From: Candidatus Omnitrophota bacterium
Lineage (GTDB): Bacteria > Ratteibacteria > UBA8468 > MWAK01
Length of the DNA: 30,011 bases
NCBI GenBank assembly: GCA_043797665.1
Contig: JAZDPL010000052.1
Coordinates: forward strand, 1-30,011
Direction: 5' to 3'
The position numbers and the translations under genes were made by a program. Below, piece after piece: positions 2,437 through 10,980 of the stretch (its first letter is position 1; every line of letters begins with the position of its first letter). The notes beneath the pieces were generated by a model. It made no database searches. It saw nothing but the letters and a program-made list of their open reading frames with translations, and was not told the DNA's origin.

Positions 2437-3146
2437 CTAATAGCCGAAGAAGTTTTCCGTATGTATCTGCTCTCTGCGGACATTTTTCAGGCAGACTTCG
2501 AACATCGCCTTTACCATCCCCGGCGGTCCGAAGATGAGGATTGTTCGGTCCCGGGCATCAGGCATCCTGGTTGCTAATACATTCTCATCGATGCGACCGT
2601 ATAAACATTCAGGGTCTTTCGATTGGTAATCGGTCAGTGTGTAAAAAACCTTCAGGTTGGGATTTTCTTTGCGCCAGCGGTCAATCTCGGGTTTAAAGGC
2701 AATCTCTTCTTCCACCCGGTTTGAATAGAGGAGGACAACGTCGGTCTTCAACTTCCGGTCTGTAATATATTCCAAAATTGAAATTACCGGCGTGATACCG
2801 ATGCCGCCGATTAAAAAACCGATTTTCGGCTGTTCCTTCCGGAAGACGCAGTTGCCCAGCGGACCCTTTAACCAAACATCCTCCCCGGGCTGTGCAGTGC
2901 TTTAAGTCTGTTTGAAAAATCGCTGTCACTCAAGCGCTTGGTGAACTCAAGATAATCCCGTTCCGGCGAAGCTGAGGAGGAAAGATACTTGTTTAACAAC
3001 TGGTTGCCGGAATTGGCCGGGTCGAAGATAACCTGCAGAAATTGGCCGGGAATGAAATTCGGCTTTTGTTCCGGGATGAACCGGAAGCTTTCGACGGTGT
3101 CGGTTCTTTTTACCCGCTCCTTGAATTTTACCTTAAAAAAATTCAT
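2437..3146 (-). pseudogene. FAD/NAD(P)H-dependent oxidoreductase (ferredoxin reductase-like), frameshifted
   Basis: The N-part (F.PGQF, KYLSSSASP) and C-part (KGPLG, IGGIGITP, YSNR, FGPPGMV, IHTENFFGY) join if a 2-bp TG duplication at 2891-2894 is removed, giving about 235 aa. Confidence 0.8.
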
Positions 3147-3177: not shown

Positions 3178-3666
3178 CTATCCTTTTCTTTTGGCCAGAT
3201 TCCGGTCCATCACGGCGACAGCTTCGGACCCGGATTTCCCCGCTTTCAGTCCAGCGATAATCCGGGAAACGTTCTCTTCCTCTTCAGACTGTTCCTTGAC
3301 AAACCACTGGAGAAAGGTGAAAGCGGCTTTATCGTCCGCTTCTTTGGAAATACCGCAGAGCCGCTTAATCACCCCGGTTACTTTCTGTTCGTGCCTGTAA
3401 ACCAGTTCAAACAGGCACGGGGATGAAGTGAACTTTACCGGCGGCTGGTCAATCGCCTTCAAAACAACCTTTTCCCCCCGGCTAACCAAAAAATCATATA
3501 TCTTCATCCCGTGCGTCCACTCTTCCTTGAACTGAACCTTCAGCCAGTGCGAGAACCCCGTGAGCGGAATCGAATCGCAGTAGGCGGCCATAGACAAATA
3601 GAGATACGCTGAATAAAATTCTTTGTTTATCTGGTCGTTTAGAGCATCCCGTAATTTTTTGTTCAT
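3178..3666 (-). CDS. ftnA: non-heme ferritin
   Basis: NKEFYSAYLY, EEWTH, HEQKVT and FLQWFVKEQSEEE ferroxidase-centre motifs; SD GGAGG. Confidence 0.92.
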   Translation of the reverse strand: MNKKLRDALNDQINKEFYSAYLYLSMAAYCDSIPLTGFSHWLKVQFKEEWTHGMKIYDFLVSRGEKVVLKAIDQPPVKFTSSPCLFELVYRHEQKVTGVIKRLCGISKEADDKAAFTFLQWFVKEQSEEEENVSRIIAGLKAGKSGSEAVAVMDRNLAKRKG

Positions 3667-3738
3667 TTGACATCCTCCATTTGCCCATCAAAAAGAAACA
3701 TTTTAGCCTGATACCCTGCCTGTATATCTTCAGATTTT

Positions 3739-3773
3739 AGTGGAAACAATCACCTGATTTCAAGTTTGGGGTT
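3739..3773 (-). repeat. shared leader segment (ferritin copy)
   Basis: 32/35 identical to 8658-8692; 3729-3755 is 22/27 identical to 459-485. Confidence 0.8.
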
Positions 3774-3798
3774 AACTTCATTTTCACTGACTAACCAA

Positions 3799-3827
3799 AT
3801 CTTACCACCCCGTCAGGATAATCTCAA
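3799..3827 (-). promoter_or_regulatory. sigma70-type promoter for ferritin
   Basis: TTGAGA-N17-TAAGAT with extended -10 TG. Confidence 0.5.
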
Positions 3828-3912
3828 GCCCAGGATTATTGTGGTTTTGTAGTGAACCCTTATCCTTGGACTGGGGTGACCCCGCTATTTCATTTGTTTT
3901 GATTTCTTATTT

Positions 3913-4572
3913 CTATGTATTTTCACTATGTTTGATTAGTTTTGCTTCCGCCACGTAAACCACATCTTCGGCAATGTTGGTGGCATGGTCGCAAATGCGC
4001 TCTAAATGACGGGCGACCAGGATAAGCGGAATAGCCCGGGGAGCAAGATTGCAATCGCGGCTGATAATCTCAGTCAGTTCCTTGTAAACGGCGTCTTTCA
4101 AAAAGTCAGCTTCATCATCCTGTTTTCTGACGGAACGGGCCAGTTCTCCATCGAGGTTTACGAATGATTTGATACTCTCGTGGATCATATTTTGAGCAAG
4201 GCGTGCCAACTTAGGGATATCAATCAAAGGTTTAATGAGGGGTTGGCCAACTAACTCCAAGGTACGCTGGGCAATGTCAACCGCCAGGTCAGCCATCCGT
4301 TCCAGGTCGGTACCTATCTTCGTCGTCATAACAATCATCCGTAAATCTTTGGCAACCGGCTGGTTGCGAACAATAAAAACAAGCGTCTTTTCGTCGATTT
4401 CGTTCTCTAACCGATCGATACTGACATCTGCGGTGATTACCTCGTTGGCCAGTTCCGGGGAGAGACGTTCCAGAGAAGATACCGCTTTGCTGATTGCCTC
4501 TTCAACCATCCCACTCATTACCAGAATGGTACGTTTCAGTTCTTCTAATTCCAACTCGAAATGCCGTTCCAT
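3913..4572 (-). CDS. phoU: phosphate signalling complex protein PhoU
   Basis: QPVAKDLR, DLERMAD and HLERICDHATNIAE motifs; last gene of the pst cluster. Confidence 0.95.
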   Translation of the reverse strand: MERHFELELEELKRTILVMSGMVEEAISKAVSSLERLSPELANEVITADVSIDRLENEIDEKTLVFIVRNQPVAKDLRMIVMTTKIGTDLERMADLAVDIAQRTLELVGQPLIKPLIDIPKLARLAQNMIHESIKSFVNLDGELARSVRKQDDEADFLKDAVYKELTEIISRDCNLAPRAIPLILVARHLERICDHATNIAEDVVYVAEAKLIKHSENT

Positions 4573-4592
4573 AAAAGCCTCCCTCTTTTTTA

Positions 4593-5348
4593 TTAGCCAA
4601 AACGCCCGGTAATATATCTTTCAGTGCGAGTATCCTGGGGTTTCTCAAATACCTGTCTGGTCTCTCCAAATTCGACTAAATCACCGAGAAGGAAAAAGCC
4701 GCAGGAGTCGGAAATTCTGGCTGCCTGGTCCATATTGTGAGTTACGATAATAATCGTATATGTTATTTTAAGTTCTAACATTAATTCTTCTAACTTTTCA
4801 GTAGCGATAGAGTCAAGGGCGCTGCAAGGTTCGTCTAAGAGTATTATGTCAGGTTTGGTAGCAACTATTCTGGCCAGACAAAGCCGCTGCTGTTGGTCCA
4901 GAGGTAAAGAACATGCATCTTTTTTGAGGATATCCTTAAGGTCATTCCACAGCCAGGTGCTGCGCAGACTCTCCTCTACAACTCGGTCCCATTCTTTTTT
5001 GGGAAGAAGGTTATGTATTTTTAGACCGTATGTTACATTATCCCTGACGGAAAGCGGAAAAGGGTTCGGTCTCTGAAAGACCATCCCGATTTTTTTACGG
5101 AGTGAAATGAGGTCTGTGCTGGTAGCGTAAATGTTATTTCCGGCAATGGTAACCGCACCTTCTGTTTTTACATCTGGAATAAGATCGTTCATACGATTGA
5201 GACAACGTAAAAAAGTTGATTTGCCGCAACCAGACGGTCCGATCAGCGCAGTAATCCGATTCGCCTCAAAGTTTACATTTACATCTCTGAGTGCTTGGAA
5301 AGTTCCGTAGTAAAGGTTGAGACCTTTTACTTCTACTGTACAAACCAT
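4593..5348 (-). CDS. pstB: phosphate ABC transporter ATPase with degenerate signature motif
   Basis: GPSGCGKST, GMVFQRPNPF, LLDEP, VTHNM and YITGRFG; signature reads LPLDQ instead of LSGGQ. Confidence 0.92.
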   Translation of the reverse strand: MVCTVEVKGLNLYYGTFQALRDVNVNFEANRITALIGPSGCGKSTFLRCLNRMNDLIPDVKTEGAVTIAGNNIYATSTDLISLRKKIGMVFQRPNPFPLSVRDNVTYGLKIHNLLPKKEWDRVVEESLRSTWLWNDLKDILKKDACSLPLDQQQRLCLARIVATKPDIILLDEPCSALDSIATEKLEELMLELKITYTIIIVTHNMDQAARISDSCGFFLLGDLVEFGETRQVFEKPQDTRTERYITGRFG

Positions 5349-5351
5349 TTC

Positions 5352-6110
5352 TTATCCGAATTTTCCGGCTATGTAATTTTCAGTCATTTTGTCTTTAGGT
5401 GCAGTAAAAATCTGTTCCGTTTCGCCATATTCCACCATCTTGCCTTGAAGGAAAAAAGCGGTATAGTCAGCCACGCGCGCAACCTGCTTGGTATTGTTTG
5501 TTACCAGGATGAACGAGACCTCTTTTTTAAGATGGATGATAGTTTCTTCTATTTTGGCCGTGGAAATCGGGTCCAGTCCGCTGCACGGATCATCCAGGAG
5601 GATAACCTGCGGTTTTAAGGCAATGATTCTGGCTAAGCATAGACGCTGTTGCTGGCCGCCGGAAAGTTTTAAAGCCGATAAGTTCAGGCGGTTTTGTACT
5701 TCATCCCATAAAGAAGCGGCTTGGAGTCCGTATCTTACCAACCGTTCAAGTTCGGCACGGTTCTTTACTCCCATCAGCCTGGGACCAAAAGTCAGATTGC
5801 GATAGATAGACATTGGCAATGGAATTGGCAGGGCGAAGACCATCCCGATTTTTCTTCTCAGTTCAACAAGATTGATTGATGAGTCAAAAATATCTTTGCC
5901 TTCAAAGATTACCGTCCCTTTTGTTTGATATCCTTCGTCGAACTCAATCAGGCGGTTAAGGAGGCGTAAAAACGAAGTTTTACCGCTGCCCGTCGGACCG
6001 ATGATGCCCAGGATGCTGTTCCGGTTCAGGGAGAGAGAGATTGAGGTTAGAATCGATTTACCGTTATTCCAAAGGGAGAGGTCTTTAGTCTCCAGAATCG
6101 GGTCACTCAT
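5352..6110 (-). CDS. pstB: phosphate ABC transporter ATPase paralogue with degenerate catalytic motifs
   Basis: GPTGSGKTS, LSGGQQQR and YIAGKFG; but Q-loop GMVFALP, Walker B LLDDP and H-switch VTNN. Confidence 0.9.
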   Translation of the reverse strand: MSDPILETKDLSLWNNGKSILTSISLSLNRNSILGIIGPTGSGKTSFLRLLNRLIEFDEGYQTKGTVIFEGKDIFDSSINLVELRRKIGMVFALPIPLPMSIYRNLTFGPRLMGVKNRAELERLVRYGLQAASLWDEVQNRLNLSALKLSGGQQQRLCLARIIALKPQVILLDDPCSGLDPISTAKIEETIIHLKKEVSFILVTNNTKQVARVADYTAFFLQGKMVEYGETEQIFTAPKDKMTENYIAGKFG

Positions 6111-6949
6111 GATTTTTCAATAAATTTATGCATGGCATAATAGGCGAAGGTGTTAATGACAAGTATCATCAAGACCAAAAGTGCGGCTGTACCGTAAGCA
6201 TTCGGCATACTGATACCTTCCCGGGCCAGAATATAAAAATGGACCGCCATGGTCCGGACTGAGTCCATAGCCGAAAGAGGTATCTTCAAAGAAGAACCGG
6301 CAGTGAAGATCACCGCCGCAGTCTCACCGATGGAGCGACCGAACGCAAGCATCACACCGGTGAAGATGCCGGGGAGAGCAGAAGGCAGGACAACTTTTGT
6401 AATTCCTTCCCATTTGGTCGCACCCAGAGAGAGAGCTACTTCCCGGTAATACCGAGGGACTGATTTAATAGATTCTTCGCTGGTTCTGATTATGGTGGGA
6501 AGTACCATGATGGCAAGAGTTAGCCCGCCGGAAAGGATTGACCAACCCATTTTGAGGGTGACCACAAAGAGGACGAAGCCAAAAAGTCCGAAGATGATGG
6601 ATGGAACTCCAGCTAAACATTCGGCACCGAACCTTATGATTGTGGTAAGTTTAGTTTCCTTGGTGTATTCGGTCAAATAGATTGCGGTTCCCACACCTGA
6701 AGGAACAGCGAACAAAAGCGCTACCAGAGGCAACAGGAACGTGCCTAAAATGGTCGGAAAGATTCCGCCTGCTTCACCCATTGTTTTCGGCATACCGAAA
6801 ATGAATTTAAGCCTCAACACCGGTAATCCCTTTGCCAGAATATATCCGAGAATGAAAAGTAAGATGAAGAGTACCAACGCAGCCATAACTCCAAAATAGA
6901 CATCCGTTATCCGTTGTGTTCTAACCGGGTTATATCCAAGTATTTTCAT
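6107..6949 (-). CDS. pstA: phosphate ABC transporter permease PstA
   Basis: AIYLTEY, LAGVPSIIFGLFG, EAA-like loop and GRSIGETA; overlaps pstB. Confidence 0.93.
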   Translation of the reverse strand: MKILGYNPVRTQRITDVYFGVMAALVLFILLFILGYILAKGLPVLRLKFIFGMPKTMGEAGGIFPTILGTFLLPLVALLFAVPSGVGTAIYLTEYTKETKLTTIIRFGAECLAGVPSIIFGLFGFVLFVVTLKMGWSILSGGLTLAIMVLPTIIRTSEESIKSVPRYYREVALSLGATKWEGITKVVLPSALPGIFTGVMLAFGRSIGETAAVIFTAGSSLKIPLSAMDSVRTMAVHFYILAREGISMPNAYGTAALLVLMILVINTFAYYAMHKFIEKS

Positions 6950-7800
6950 TTGGCCGCTTCCTTACATCCCAGCCGGGAGATGTAGGTAGCCATTAAGTTC
7001 AGAACCATGATGAAGATAAAAAGTATTATTCCGGTAGCAAAGAGCGCCTTTTGATGGTCACCGGTGGCATAACCCATTTCCAGAGCGATATTGCTGGTAA
7101 GCGGCCTGACCGGGTCCAGAAGCGAGTGGGGTATATTGAGCGCATTTCCGGCTACCATGATGACGGCCATCGTTTCACCGATGGCGCGTCCCATTCCAAG
7201 AATTACCGAAGCCAGGATGCCATTACGCGCCGCACGCACCACGACAAAAATGGTTGTTTGCCAGCGTGTCGCTCCCATGGAGATAGACGCTTCGCGGAAC
7301 GAGTTTGGAACCGCCTTTAATGAATCGGTAGAGATGCTGACAATGGTTGGTAAAATCATTATTCCCAAAATTATACTTCCAGCCAGCAGGGAAAAACCCG
7401 GTCCGCCTAAAATCCCTCTTATAAACGGAATCAGGATTACCACACCCATAAATCCGTAGACCACCGAAGGTATTCCTGCCAGAAGTTCGATGGCAGGTTT
7501 GAGGAACTTCCGGATTTTGTCACCAGCGATTTCAGCCAGAAATATGGCGCAGGAAAGTCCGGTCGGGACCCCGATAATCAGTGCGCCAATCGTTATCCAG
7601 ACCGAAGAGAGAATCATCGGCAGAATTCCAAATTCACCGTTTGAAGGCGACCATTCTCTGCCGGTGAGAAAATTAAGGATTCCAATCTTAAATATCAGGG
7701 GTAGACCTTCCCGGAAGATGAAAAAGGTTATCACTGCCAAAGACGCAATCGAAGAGAAGGCGATGATCAGAAGCACCTTGCCGGCAAAATTTTTGTTCAT
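6946..7800 (-). CDS. pstC: phosphate ABC transporter permease PstC
   Basis: W.P..G.FGILPMI, ELLAGIPSVVYG and GMGRAIGETMAV. Confidence 0.93.
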   Translation of the reverse strand: MNKNFAGKVLLIIAFSSIASLAVITFFIFREGLPLIFKIGILNFLTGREWSPSNGEFGILPMILSSVWITIGALIIGVPTGLSCAIFLAEIAGDKIRKFLKPAIELLAGIPSVVYGFMGVVILIPFIRGILGGPGFSLLAGSIILGIMILPTIVSISTDSLKAVPNSFREASISMGATRWQTTIFVVVRAARNGILASVILGMGRAIGETMAVIMVAGNALNIPHSLLDPVRPLTSNIALEMGYATGDHQKALFATGIILFIFIMVLNLMATYISRLGCKEAAK

Positions 7801-8639
7801 TGCATAATTTCTATTTTAATTAGACCTTTCTTCGCCACTATATCCTGGCCTTCTTCAGAGAGGCAAAAGTTAATGAAATCTTCAGCCAGAGGGTTATTTC
7901 GGTTTTTCAGAATAAAGAGAAAAGGCCGAAATATTCCGTATCTTTTATCTTTAACCGTTTCTACGGTCGGGAGGATACCATCAATGGCGAGCGGTTTTAC
8001 CCGTTTGTCTACCAGCCCTAACGAAATATAACCGACGGCGTTCGGATCACCGGCCACGATTTCCCTTACGGCTCCGTTGGAATCTTGTACCAATGCCGAA
8101 TTGGAGATTCGCTCACTCTTTTTGGAACCCGGTACCCTCATAACCGTTTCTTCAAAACTTTTTCGGGTTCCGGAACCTTCTTCCCGCGTGACTACGGTAA
8201 TAGGCAGGTTGTCTATTTTGGAAATGCGACCGGCAAAGAGGTCTCTTAATTGTTCACTGGATAAGTCGGCCAGGGAGGAACTAGCGTTAGCGATGATGGC
8301 GATAGCGTCTAAAGCCACCAAGACCTTGGATAATTTTTTCTGGCCGTTAGAATCAGATTCTTCATCAGGTTGAAGTTCTCGCGACGACATGCCAATATCC
8401 GAAACGCCGGTAAGGGCTGATTCGATGCCGGCGCTCGAACCGCCTCCTTGGACGACTACTTTGGCTTCCGGATGCTTTGCAGTATAAGCCTCTGCCCACA
8501 ATTCGGCAAAGGGCTGAACAGAGGTTGAACCGGCAAGGATAAGTTTCTTTCCGGTATGTTTGGCGCACGAACTGAGAAAGGAACAGATAACGATGGTTAT
8601 CAGAAGAGAGGTTGTGGATTTCAGGTGGTGTAAGGTCAT
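7797..8639 (-). CDS. pstS: phosphate ABC transporter substrate-binding lipoprotein
   Basis: Lipobox-like LSSC; GSTSV, GGGSSAG, SSR, REEGSGTR and GYISLG motifs. Confidence 0.9.
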   Translation of the reverse strand: MTLHHLKSTTSLLITIVICSFLSSCAKHTGKKLILAGSTSVQPFAELWAEAYTAKHPEAKVVVQGGGSSAGIESALTGVSDIGMSSRELQPDEESDSNGQKKLSKVLVALDAIAIIANASSSLADLSSEQLRDLFAGRISKIDNLPITVVTREEGSGTRKSFEETVMRVPGSKKSERISNSALVQDSNGAVREIVAGDPNAVGYISLGLVDKRVKPLAIDGILPTVETVKDKRYGIFRPFLFILKNRNNPLAEDFINFCLSEEGQDIVAKKGLIKIEIMQ

Positions 8640-8657
8640 GACAGATTATACTTTGCC

Positions 8658-8692
8658 AATGGAAACAATCGCCTGATTTCAAGTTTGCGGTT
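8658..8692 (-). repeat. shared leader segment (pstS copy)
   Basis: 32/35 identical to 3739-3773. Confidence 0.8.
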
Positions 8693-8734
8693 TGGTGTTG
8701 GTCCGGGTCATTCCCCTTCTTGGACACCGAACAA

Positions 8735-8764
8735 ATGTTAGCACTTTGCCAGAAGACCGGTCAA
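8735..8764 (-). promoter_or_regulatory. distal sigma70-type promoter of the pst operon
   Basis: TTGACC-N18-TAACAT with TG; its GCAAAGTGCTAACATTT resembles GCAAGGTGATAATATTT of the 512-540 promoter. Confidence 0.5.
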
Positions 8765-8777
8765 GGGCTTTTGGGAG

Positions 8778-8797
8778 AAACTAATTGCGACAGGATG
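8778..8797 (+). repeat. junction direct repeat, copy 4
   Basis: AAACTAATTGCGACAGGATG vs 543-562 AAACTAATTGCGACTGGGTG (18/20; first 14 identical). Confidence 0.7.
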
Positions 8798-8916
8798 AAA
8801 GGTACAGAAGAATCAATTTGTTTTTCCTTTTTATCTTCTTCCATTTTTTGTATGATTAATCTATTGCTATTTCACCAGCCTTTTTTAAAGCGATTTTTGT
8901 GTACGAAGCTCGGAAT

Positions 8917-10980
8917 TCATTTCAGTTTTAAATGCGGATTCGTGCGAATTTTTTCCAGTGCCGGCGGGATTTCATATCCCAATATCTCTGCCTGATGAAT
9001 GTCCTTCCATGCTTTATCGAAGTTCCCTTTTGCCATATATGTAATACCCCGGTTAAAATAGATTTCGGCTAAATCAGGGTTGATTTCTACCGCCTGGGTA
9101 AGGATAATAATAGCTTTGTCGTAAGCTCCTTTTTTGCCGTACGCAACCCCCATCTTCCCATAGGCTTTTGCACAATGCGGGTCAATCGTTATCGCCTGGG
9201 TATAATCAGTAATGGCTTTATCGTAGTCTCCTTTTTTTAAATATGAATTCCCTCGGTTGTAGTATGCATCTGTATATCCCGGGTTAGACAGTAGTGTCTG
9301 GGTAAAATCAGCGATGGCCTTGTCGTATTCCTCTTGGCTCTCGTAGACAATGCCCCGGTTATAATAAACAACAAAAATATAATTCGGACTAAGCTTTAAT
9401 GTCCGGGTAAAATCAGCGATGGCGTTGGTATACTCTTTTTTTTGAGAGTAGGCAAGCCCCCGGTTATAATAAGCGTCTGCGTATTGAGGGTTAATCGTTA
9501 TTGCCTGGTTACAATCAGCAATAGCCTGGTCGTATTCTCCTTTTTTTAAATATACATTCGCCCGATTGTTGTAGGAAAAGGTAAATCTCGGGTTAATTCG
9601 GAGTGCCTGGTCAAAGTCGGCAATAGCTTTTTCGTATTCCTGTTGTTCTTCCAAATAGGCAAGCCCCCGGCTATCGTATGCTCTGGCTTTGTTTGGAGAT
9701 TTTTGGACCACATCGTTCCATATGGTGAATTCATTTTTCCAGACACGGTTCCGGTTGTAAGCCATGGTTGAATAGCAGATTACTATTAATGTTAACAATC
9801 CTGTTGTCAGATGGAGTCTTTTATTTCGGAAAATGTAGTAGATAATCACTGGCAGAAAAATGCTGTAGCCGACCATCGGCAAATAAATCCGGTGTTCGAA
9901 GATGACATCCTTAATGGGTACAATACTGGATTCCGGCACCAGGGTAAGAAAGAACCAGAAGATAGAAAAGGAAACGAGGCGGTTTTTCCGGAAGAGGAGA
10001 ACTGCAGTTAATAAAAGCAGTATCAACAGGCAAAGCCCGGCTAATGTTGGCAGGGTAAATAAGGTTTGGGCAATAGGATAGTCATAATCAAGGTTTTGAT
10101 TTACGGGTATCAAAAGGAGCCTTAGGTAGGTGACTATCACCCGGAACTGGGTAAGCAGGTAGGTTCCGGAAGAAATCATAATCGAATCGGATGGGGCCTG
10201 GGTTAAATGCCGTAATTCTCTGAAGTCAATGGAACCGGTTGCCCGTATAGTTACCAGTGTGGCCAACAGGATAATAAAGAACGGGATGATTTGTTTACAC
10301 AATAGTTTACGGTTTGTTTGAAAGAAGCATAACTCGTAGAGTATTAATATAAAAGGCAGGGTGATGGTGATTTCCTTGGTGAACAGTGCCAATCCCGCAG
10401 TCAGGATGGAACCAGCATAGTACCGTTGCCAGCCGGGTGGGGCCGGTTTTTCGGCATACTTCAACCGTGTTTTTACATAAAGGCACAGCGAGGCTAAATA
10501 AAAGAATGTTGCCAGGGATGTTGCGCGCTGGATAATATAAGTTACCGCCTGGGTTTGTACCGGGTGTGCTACAAATATTAATCCGCCAAAAAAAGCCAGC
10601 AGGTTGGCGTATCTGGCAGCCGCTATGTTTTTTATAGCCGGCGAGGAAAAGGTCAGGATGATAAGCCAGCGAACCAGTAATGCTGCACCCAGATGTACGG
10701 CCAAATTAAAGAGATGGTAGCCAGGAAGGGAGAATTGGTGGAAGTGATAGTTGCAGGCGAGGGAGAGAAAAGTAAAGAACCGGGTGGCACAATGATTCCA
10801 GATAACACGCAGGTTCAGTATGTTTCTAATAGCAGGATTGGTAACTATATTGCCGGCGTCATCAAAGTGAAACGAATTCTGGAAGGTGTTGGAATAAATA
10901 AGTATACCTAACAAACATAAAACAATAACTGTAAATATCCGGTTTGTACCTTTTTGGGGAATTTTTGATGGACGGCGCAT
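8917..10980 (-). CDS. TMTC-like GT-C membrane glycosyltransferase with 7 C-terminal TPRs
   Basis: FHFDD motif after TM1, HPVQTQAVTYI, KE and EHRIYLP; many TM segments; seven YYNRG...AIADF...P-type TPR units. Confidence 0.8.
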   Translation of the reverse strand: MRRPSKIPQKGTNRIFTVIVLCLLGILIYSNTFQNSFHFDDAGNIVTNPAIRNILNLRVIWNHCATRFFTFLSLACNYHFHQFSLPGYHLFNLAVHLGAALLVRWLIILTFSSPAIKNIAAARYANLLAFFGGLIFVAHPVQTQAVTYIIQRATSLATFFYLASLCLYVKTRLKYAEKPAPPGWQRYYAGSILTAGLALFTKEITITLPFILILYELCFFQTNRKLLCKQIIPFFIILLATLVTIRATGSIDFRELRHLTQAPSDSIMISSGTYLLTQFRVIVTYLRLLLIPVNQNLDYDYPIAQTLFTLPTLAGLCLLILLLLTAVLLFRKNRLVSFSIFWFFLTLVPESSIVPIKDVIFEHRIYLPMVGYSIFLPVIIYYIFRNKRLHLTTGLLTLIVICYSTMAYNRNRVWKNEFTIWNDVVQKSPNKARAYDSRGLAYLEEQQEYEKAIADFDQALRINPRFTFSYNNRANVYLKKGEYDQAIADCNQAITINPQYADAYYNRGLAYSQKKEYTNAIADFTRTLKLSPNYIFVVYYNRGIVYESQEEYDKAIADFTQTLLSNPGYTDAYYNRGNSYLKKGDYDKAITDYTQAITIDPHCAKAYGKMGVAYGKKGAYDKAIIILTQAVEINPDLAEIYFNRGITYMAKGNFDKAWKDIHQAEILGYEIPPALEKIRTNPHLKLK

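Follow-up and report, generated by a model that had tools for sequence, protein, structure and literature searches.

Complementary motif changes in tandem PstB paralogues suggest a single-site ATPase in a bacterial phosphate importer

Why would a phosphate import operon carry two adjacent genes for its ATPase, neither of which encodes the full set of canonical motifs? This question is raised by a stretch of 30,011 nucleotides from a Candidatus Omnitrophota bacterium (assembly GCA_043797665.1, contig JAZDPL010000052.1), hereafter the window. Open reading frames and profile matches give the gene order pstS-pstC-pstA-pstB-A-pstB-B-phoU on the minus strand (Table 1). Overlaps of 4 nt join pstS, pstC, pstA and pstB-A, a gap of 3 nt separates the two pstB genes, and phoU follows 20 nt further. 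TIGR00972 is the best family for PstB-A despite the score below its cut-off, and the two PstB proteins share 43-46% identity. The best PDB match of PstS is the phosphate-binding protein 4gd5 (E 2e-51), and the phoU gene is the only one that a tblastn search found in the genome assembly. By residue mapping, PstC retains Arg205 and Glu209, which correspond to Arg237 and Glu241 of the membrane phosphate site in E. coli, and PstA retains Arg205 and Glu209, which correspond to E. coli Arg220 and Glu224; the phosphate-binding Arg residues of the E. coli membrane domain are described in PMC12976172. In operons that carry a pair of this kind, the phosphate-site Arg was present in 130/131 PstA proteins (one has Lys) and in 103/103 PstC proteins. 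Since these Arg residues are kept both in the window and in the paired operons, the substrate is very likely phosphate, and ATP-driven phosphate uptake is predicted for the operon of the window.

Table 1. Genes of the pst operon in the window and the motifs read in its two PstB proteins
Feature	Position	Strand	Evidence
pstS, phosphate-binding protein	7797..8639	-	TIGR02136, 200.7 bits, just below cut-off of 206.6
pstC, permease	6946..7800	-	TIGR02138, above cut-off
pstA, permease	6107..6949	-	TIGR00974, above cut-off
pstB-A, cis-degenerate ATPase subunit, 252 aa	5352..6110	-	TIGR00972, 322.6 bits, under cut-off of 343.2
PstB-A A-loop LSLWNN (Tyr to Asn15)	6063-6080	-	motif reading
PstB-A Walker A GPTGSGKT (Lys44 and Thr45 kept)	5976-5999	-	motif reading
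PstB-A Q-loop GMVFALP (Gln to Ala93; next residue Leu94)	5826-5846	-	motif reading
PstB-A signature LSGGQ, intact	5652-5666	-	motif reading
PstB-A Walker B LLDDP (catalytic Glu to Asp174; Asp173 kept)	5586-5600	-	motif reading
PstB-A switch VTNN (His to Asn205)	5493-5504	-	motif reading
pstB-B, signature-degenerate ATPase subunit, 251 aa	4593..5348	-	TIGR00972, 359.9 bits, over cut-off of 343.2
PstB-B signature LPLDQ (Ser-Gly-Gly changed)	4893-4907	-	motif reading
phoU	3913..4572	-	TIGR02135, above cut-off

The surroundings of the operon can be described briefly. The upstream neighbour of pstS (8917-10980, minus strand) encodes a membrane protein of 687 aa whose C-terminal part contains TPR repeats, and a Fic-domain protein and a non-heme ferritin-like gene (1177-2247 and 3178-3666, minus strand) lie 3' of phoU. 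At 2437-3146 (minus strand) an FAD/NAD-binding oxidoreductase is seemingly split into ORFs of 92 and 112 aa in different frames, of which only the second matches Pfam NAD_binding_1, and which possibly represent one frameshifted gene. A scan of positions 3600-9000 for promoters and terminators returned hits at chance level (10 vs 8.7; 6 vs 6.3). In the single RNA run that was found, a fraction of 0.06 of the words was present, and the contigs were mostly fragments of other organisms.

An earlier note on this DNA had proposed that the two paralogues are degenerate in complementary ways. Base-by-base reading and alignment to E. coli PstB confirmed all motifs that it named, at both pstB genes. The cis motifs of PstB-B are canonical, namely LNLYYG (Tyr14), GPSGCGKS, GMVFQRP (Gln92), LLDEP (Asp172-Glu173) and VTHN (His204). 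PstB-A had been described as having lost its cis residues apart from Walker A; the losses are real, but Walker B Asp173 is kept as well. The D-loop Asp is also retained in PstB-A, the replaced catalytic Glu aligns with E179 of E. coli PstB, and positions 3 and 5 of its Walker A motif do not follow the PstB consensus. The acidic residue in the LPLDQ signature of PstB-B occupies the position of CFTR Gly551. When the composition of each composite ATP site is taken as given in a review (PMC7756269), all five changed motifs fall, as had been claimed, into one composite site of an A/B heterodimer. A random placement of five changes among the ten motif slots that two sites offer would put all of them into one site with a probability of 2/252 or about 0.008 by hand arithmetic; the conservation across phyla described below is a stronger argument than this value. 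Assembly error was ruled out, because the identical Ala / Asp-Asp / Asn plus LPLDQ arrangement recurs in four further genomes of the family.

We consider it likely that PstC and PstA carry one PstB-A and one PstB-B, that the core of PstB-B together with the signature of PstB-A hydrolyses ATP, and that the other site serves as a hinge without hydrolysis. The active site would be built from the A-loop, Walker A, Q-loop, Walker B Glu and switch His of PstB-B and the LSGGQ of PstB-A. The altered site would consist of the PstB-A P-loop and the LPLDQ of PstB-B and is predicted to be without ATP hydrolysis. It would retain the holders of Mg and of the beta-phosphate (Lys44, Thr45 and Asp173). The side chains responsible for contacting or activating the gamma-phosphate (Gln, His and, in the window, also Glu) would be missing, and the acidic side chain of the PstB-B signature would sit where the gamma-phosphate would be. 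With Gln and His gone and Lys, Thr and Asp kept, such a site would suit ADP or a loosely held nucleotide better than occluded ATP, and it most likely serves as a non-catalytic hinge or latch holding either of these while the other site drives transport. In an A/A or B/B homodimer both sites would be defective, and this would account for the joint retention of the two genes. We infer a physical heterodimer, the inactivity of its altered site and of both homodimers, and the kind of nucleotide at the altered site.

To what extent this arrangement is shared was examined site by site in 149 pairs, of which 129 were complete and 122 remained under 90% identity (range 45-90%, median 60%), with 42 canonical PstB proteins as controls. 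All 42 controls had the Gln, His, Glu and S-G-G-Q. On the predicted active site, the B half retained the A-loop aromatic, Walker A Lys, Gln, Asp-Glu and His in 122/122 pairs each, and the A half retained the S-G-G-Q signature, likewise in 122/122. The altered site presents a different picture. The Q-loop position of A was Ala in 113 pairs, Ser in 7 and Asp in 2, and was never Gln. The switch position of A was Asn in all 122 pairs and never His, and position 4 of the B signature was Glu in 108, Asp in 12, Tyr in 2 and Gly in none, thus acidic in 120/122; these two counts hold partly by construction, as the pairs were chosen on switch Asn or acidic signature, and their unbiased equivalents are those of the reciprocal scans below. 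Positions 2-4 of the B signature were variable over the 122 pairs, some B proteins reading LSGEQ. All 122 pairs keep the Walker A Lys and Ser/Thr and the Walker B Asp of A at the altered site. Positions 3-5 of the A Walker A deviate from the PstB consensus across the 122 pairs, and novel residues have become fixed in A, namely Ser at Walker A position 5, a D-loop Gly and a Lys three positions after the switch (106/122). A subgroup of largely Desulfobacterota-like loci (L034, L038, L073, L085, L094, L095 and similar ones) has Lys at Walker A position 4 of A, often Ser in the Q-loop of A and LTEEQ as the signature of B; the six loci named have no adjacent phoU.

The remaining two of the five changes are distributed differently. 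The catalytic Glu of A was retained in 119/122 pairs, and the three Asp variants are all from the family of the window. The A-loop of A was still Phe or Tyr in 92/104 readable proteins, and its aromatic residue was lost (Asn or Gly) in five genomes of the window's family. Of the five defects listed in the earlier note, three (Q-loop, switch His and signature) are therefore family-defining, but the change from Glu to Asp and the loss of the A-loop aromatic are extras of the window's lineage. Given the retention of Glu and of the aromatic residue elsewhere, the comparison identifies these two changes as additions that one lineage made to an older core of three. Since Glu is kept in 119/122 pairs and a His-to-Asn change in the active site of MRP1 is described as leaving transport wild-type-like (review PMC7756269), the altered site outside the window's lineage may be slow rather than dead. 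The word dead is best justified in the window's lineage, where both Glu and the A-loop are changed as well.

Homology searches were run with each of the two subunits. Among the best 120 of 7571 matches to PstB-A (query included), Q-loop Ala, switch Asn and LSGGQ were found in 120/120 each, and the catalytic position was Glu in 114 and Asp in 6. Among the best 120 of 7996 matches to PstB-B, Gln, Glu and His were present in 120/120, and signature position 4 was acidic (Glu or Asp) in 117, with Tyr in 2 and a single Gly. The closest named homologues among the best matches bear the source labels Omnitrophota, Ratteibacteria and TA06. A search of 60 relatives recovered the four same-family genomes mentioned above and two further genomes with Ala / Asp-Glu / Asn plus LSLEQ. 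Three family members showed no visible pair: the first encodes just one PstB, a canonical one, the second has a B-type gene alone near a contig end, and the third gave no match. No match of more than 60% identity to PstB-A was found in 146 plasmid records, and the nine of these records that were read are all canonical.

Whether the degenerations co-occur in tandem pstB pairs, a check that the earlier note had proposed, was addressed with two exact-pattern scans, each anchored on one half of the pair only. Neither scan yields a prevalence figure, and all counts hold among the matches listed. The GTDB scan, anchored on switch Asn, returned at least 117 loci, 80 of them with flanks. Among the matches listed, the Q-loop residue of these 80 could not be read in 4; the other 76 had Ala (69) or Ser (7) and none had Gln. 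A second pstB lay next to the A-type gene in 76/80. Among the same listed matches, the partner had a residue other than Gly at signature position 4 in 74/74 readable cases (Glu/Asp 72, Tyr 2, Gly 0). The four loci without an adjacent second pstB comprise two at a contig edge and two from Elusimicrobiota. The metagenome scan, anchored on the acidic signature, returned at least 120 loci, 80 with flanks. Among the matches listed, the upstream neighbour was visible in 66 of these 80 and carried switch Asn in 66/66, while 13 loci were cut by contig ends. The remaining metagenome locus, L211, has a chimeric A/B reading frame and no partner in view; at L211:2363-3364 (minus strand) an A-type N-terminus is fused to a B-type PstB at a shared LNRMND-like stretch, the result of either deletion or misassembly. 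A complementary partner was thus present in every readable locus of both scans.

A precedes B in 142/142 pairs. In the two Elusimicrobiota genomes, pstC-pstA-pstB(A) stands apart from the B-type gene and both types are retained (L061 with L273; L064, titled Endomicrobium, with L270). Their detached B-type genes have the signatures LTLEQ and LSLEE, and that of L270 adjoins phoU. Phylum labels were available for 95 of the at least 117 A-type loci of the GTDB scan and numbered at least 22, led by Planctomycetota (24) and Omnitrophota (16). On comparative sequence evidence the pair of PstB-A and PstB-B is real, selected and widespread.

In phylogenetic trees, A (82 sequences) and B (76) each formed one clade among 43 other PstBs, with a support of 0.45 for B. 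When 16 diagnostic columns were removed from a subset of 61 sequences, the A and B clades each received an SH-aLRT of 96. The two clades probably arose once, and the pairs are for this reason not independent events. Free trees do not join A and B, while the constrained tree was 12.3 log units higher with a p-AU of 0.63, so that the sequences neither show nor reject a single common duplication behind the two. The window's own genome contains a second pst cluster (G000:C21:69949-72576) with pstC-pstA-pstB, which has neither pstS nor phoU alongside. The single PstB encoded there shows LSLGQ as signature, with the fourth-position Gly intact, the Q-loop GLLSQKP, the Walker B GDEP and the switch THI, and in the tree it stands apart from clades A and B on a long branch.

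An A-type gene might be taken for a decaying duplicate whose complementarity to its neighbour is coincidental, as PstB-A scores under the TIGR00972 cut-off and, in comparisons within the family, has a somewhat higher dN than pstA (0.155-0.285 vs 0.11-0.20). We give this reading practically no credence. Median dN/dS was 0.10 for A, 0.085 for B and 0.083 for pstA in 21 close pairs (one duplicated), with maxima of 0.24 for A and 0.32 for B; identical substitutions are fixed across the 22 or more phylum labels; and the fold of PstB-A is intact in its AlphaFold2 model (pLDDT 94.5; TM 0.94 and rmsd 1.2 Å vs E. coli PstB 9k3x_C). Motif conservation and dN/dS together refute decay: the earlier note had named canonical orthologues with relaxed dN/dS as the sign of it, and we found conserved altered motifs and a dN/dS of about 0.1. 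A decidedly unlikely alternative is that the two subunits are unequal and the pair not obligate, one homodimer (likeliest of PstB-B), or one subunit with a canonical PstB, doing the transport and the other being accessory. E. faecalis offers a precedent, in which pstB2 is reported to be required and excess PstB2 to replace PstB1 (PMC12096839). Some B proteins retain Ser and the first Gly of the signature, as in LSGEQ, and of 16 genomes with both genes that were examined, all of them draft assemblies or incomplete MAGs, 10 (including that of the window) contain a further PstB, while none was found in the other 6; mixed dimers of A or B with a canonical subunit are therefore possible. However, a B homodimer would place an acidic residue against the gamma-phosphate in both sites, in the window with Pro in place of Ser in addition, and among the matches listed an A partner accompanied every B gene whose upstream neighbour could be read (66/66). 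The core proposal of the earlier note, a selected complementary degeneration on one composite site that implies an asymmetric heterodimer, is strongly supported by these comparative data.

If the heterodimer is accepted, its altered site could be a regulatory sensor rather than a hinge, the acidic signature opposing closure on ATP or selecting ADP, so that energy charge would gate uptake or Pho signalling. The residue at B signature position 4 is specifically acidic (120/122, with the selection of pairs noted above) and not free to vary, and at the equivalent position of CFTR the changes G551D and G551E, though not G551K or G551S, are reported to make the site inhibitory by repulsion of the gamma-phosphate (PMC4178940). 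The invariant Lys, Ser/Thr and Walker B Asp of A and the newly fixed residues of A would also agree with a sensor. We nevertheless regard it as unlikely. The loss of the A-loop aromatic in the window's lineage is more in keeping with weak binding of nucleotide than with a tuned sensor, a degenerate site of Pdr5 carries LNVEQ and such sites are mainly structural or hinge-like according to a review (PMC7756269), and phoU was adjacent, in the fetched downstream DNA, in just 86/130 loci. This last count neither supports nor excludes signalling, and the earlier suggestion that the altered site serves PhoU signalling is left without support. A bolder reading, to which we assign a low but appreciable probability, is that these operons represent a widespread undescribed class of type I importers, in which a conserved Glu/Asp replaces the gamma-phosphate, as a naturally occurring equivalent of CFTR G551D, and lets the site distinguish ADP from ATP, so that energy charge gates an uptake of one ATP per cycle in energy-limited, mostly uncultured bacteria.

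Covariation between the subunits was consistent with the heterodimer as the preferred reading, at the level of a hint. The top inter-subunit signal, rank 1 of 26,244, links Leu94 of A (the residue after the Q-loop position) with position 3 of the B signature (z 10.3), two positions that we presume, from the general geometry of ABC dimers, to lie face-to-face. On 111 loci the signal had a z of 9.9, compared with 7.5 and 5.7 for the best pairs with PstA. A94 was Leu or Met in 73/77 cases in which B position 3 is Leu, and Lys in 7/11 cases in which it is Glu. In a phylogeny-aware test the supported branches offered between 1 and 5 independent pairs, which is too few, and p was 1, so that the covariation is suggestive only as a sign of contact. 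Covariation at Walker A (z 6.2) was not above a PstA control column (z 6.6), and a salt bridge between a basic residue at Walker A position 4 of A and an acidic residue at signature position 3 of B was unsupported in the covariation data. Comparison by eye of the PstA and PstC coupling-helix consensus between paired and canonical operons revealed no clear diagnostic residue.

In the literature searched, which took in only some subscription papers, we came across no account of such a complementary pair of PstB proteins. Type I importers have been described as homodimeric two-site motors, and PMC3971661 treats the question of one or two ATP per substrate as open. A natural and selected single-site Pst pump would offer a direct test system for this question, and also for how the PstB positions under PstA and PstC share transport and Pho signalling. 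The lineage of the window has the most altered version seen, and the additional changes in its A-loop and catalytic Glu make it the clearest candidate for a site that has lost all activity. For genome annotation, the A-type and B-type pstB genes of lineages such as Omnitrophota, Planctomycetota and Elusimicrobiota are probably halves of one motor and not redundant copies.

How does the pair relate to known systems? The E. coli PstSCAB transporter shares with the window the operon, the fold (TM 0.94) and the phosphate-binding Arg of PstA and PstC. It contains a PstB homodimer (PDB 9k3x, 9k3y, 9k3s; PMC12976172) and thus one PstB twice with two canonical sites, whereas the two paralogues of the window can form only one canonical site. 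The tandem pstB1/pstB2 of Firmicutes, as in E. faecalis (PMC12096839), resembles the window in that a pair of neighbouring pstB genes separates pstA from phoU, and PstBA and PstBB of B. subtilis have been modelled as a heterodimer (PMC11466899). In the Firmicute pairs, including those of Niallia, Latilactobacillus and Listeria, both paralogues are canonical and fall outside clades A and B; membership of the window in this group was ruled out, as its paralogues are non-canonical. PstB2 of E. faecalis is moreover reported to be able to work without PstB1 (PMC12096839), unlike the obligate pair predicted for the window.

In exporters and channels with a degenerate site (TM287/288, TAP1/2, MRP1, CFTR, Pdr5; PMC7756269), as in the window, deviations are confined to one composite site. 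The Glu-to-Asp change of TM287/288 and MRP1 also occurs in the window, and an acidic fourth signature residue is found in Pdr5 as well, whose LNVEQ is the nearest known signature to the B type (PMC7756269). Exporters have membrane-fused ATPase domains, while the window encodes separate PstC and PstA permeases and a binding protein. Across the family, the PstB pair has lost the Q-loop Gln and switch His and acquired an acidic signature while usually keeping the catalytic Glu (119/122), unlike degenerate-site exporters. The Pst importer of the window would thus probably work like the asymmetric exporters without belonging to them. The earlier note had called asymmetry with one dead site typical of exporters; degenerate sites are indeed common there (PMC3971661, PMC7756269), but importers with one such site are known too, namely sugar and nucleoside importers with the fused ATPase domains of RbsA and NupO (PMC11466899, PMC13739795). 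These share with the window the combination of one consensus and one degenerate site in an importer (PMC11466899, PMC13739795). RbsA and NupO carry two domains in one chain, the second Walker A being without Lys, and are type II according to the B. subtilis paper (PMC11466899). The pair described here differs from them in having separate genes, in the window 3 nt apart, with the Walker A Lys in both subunits of 122/122 pairs, and in serving a type I PstC/PstA permease.
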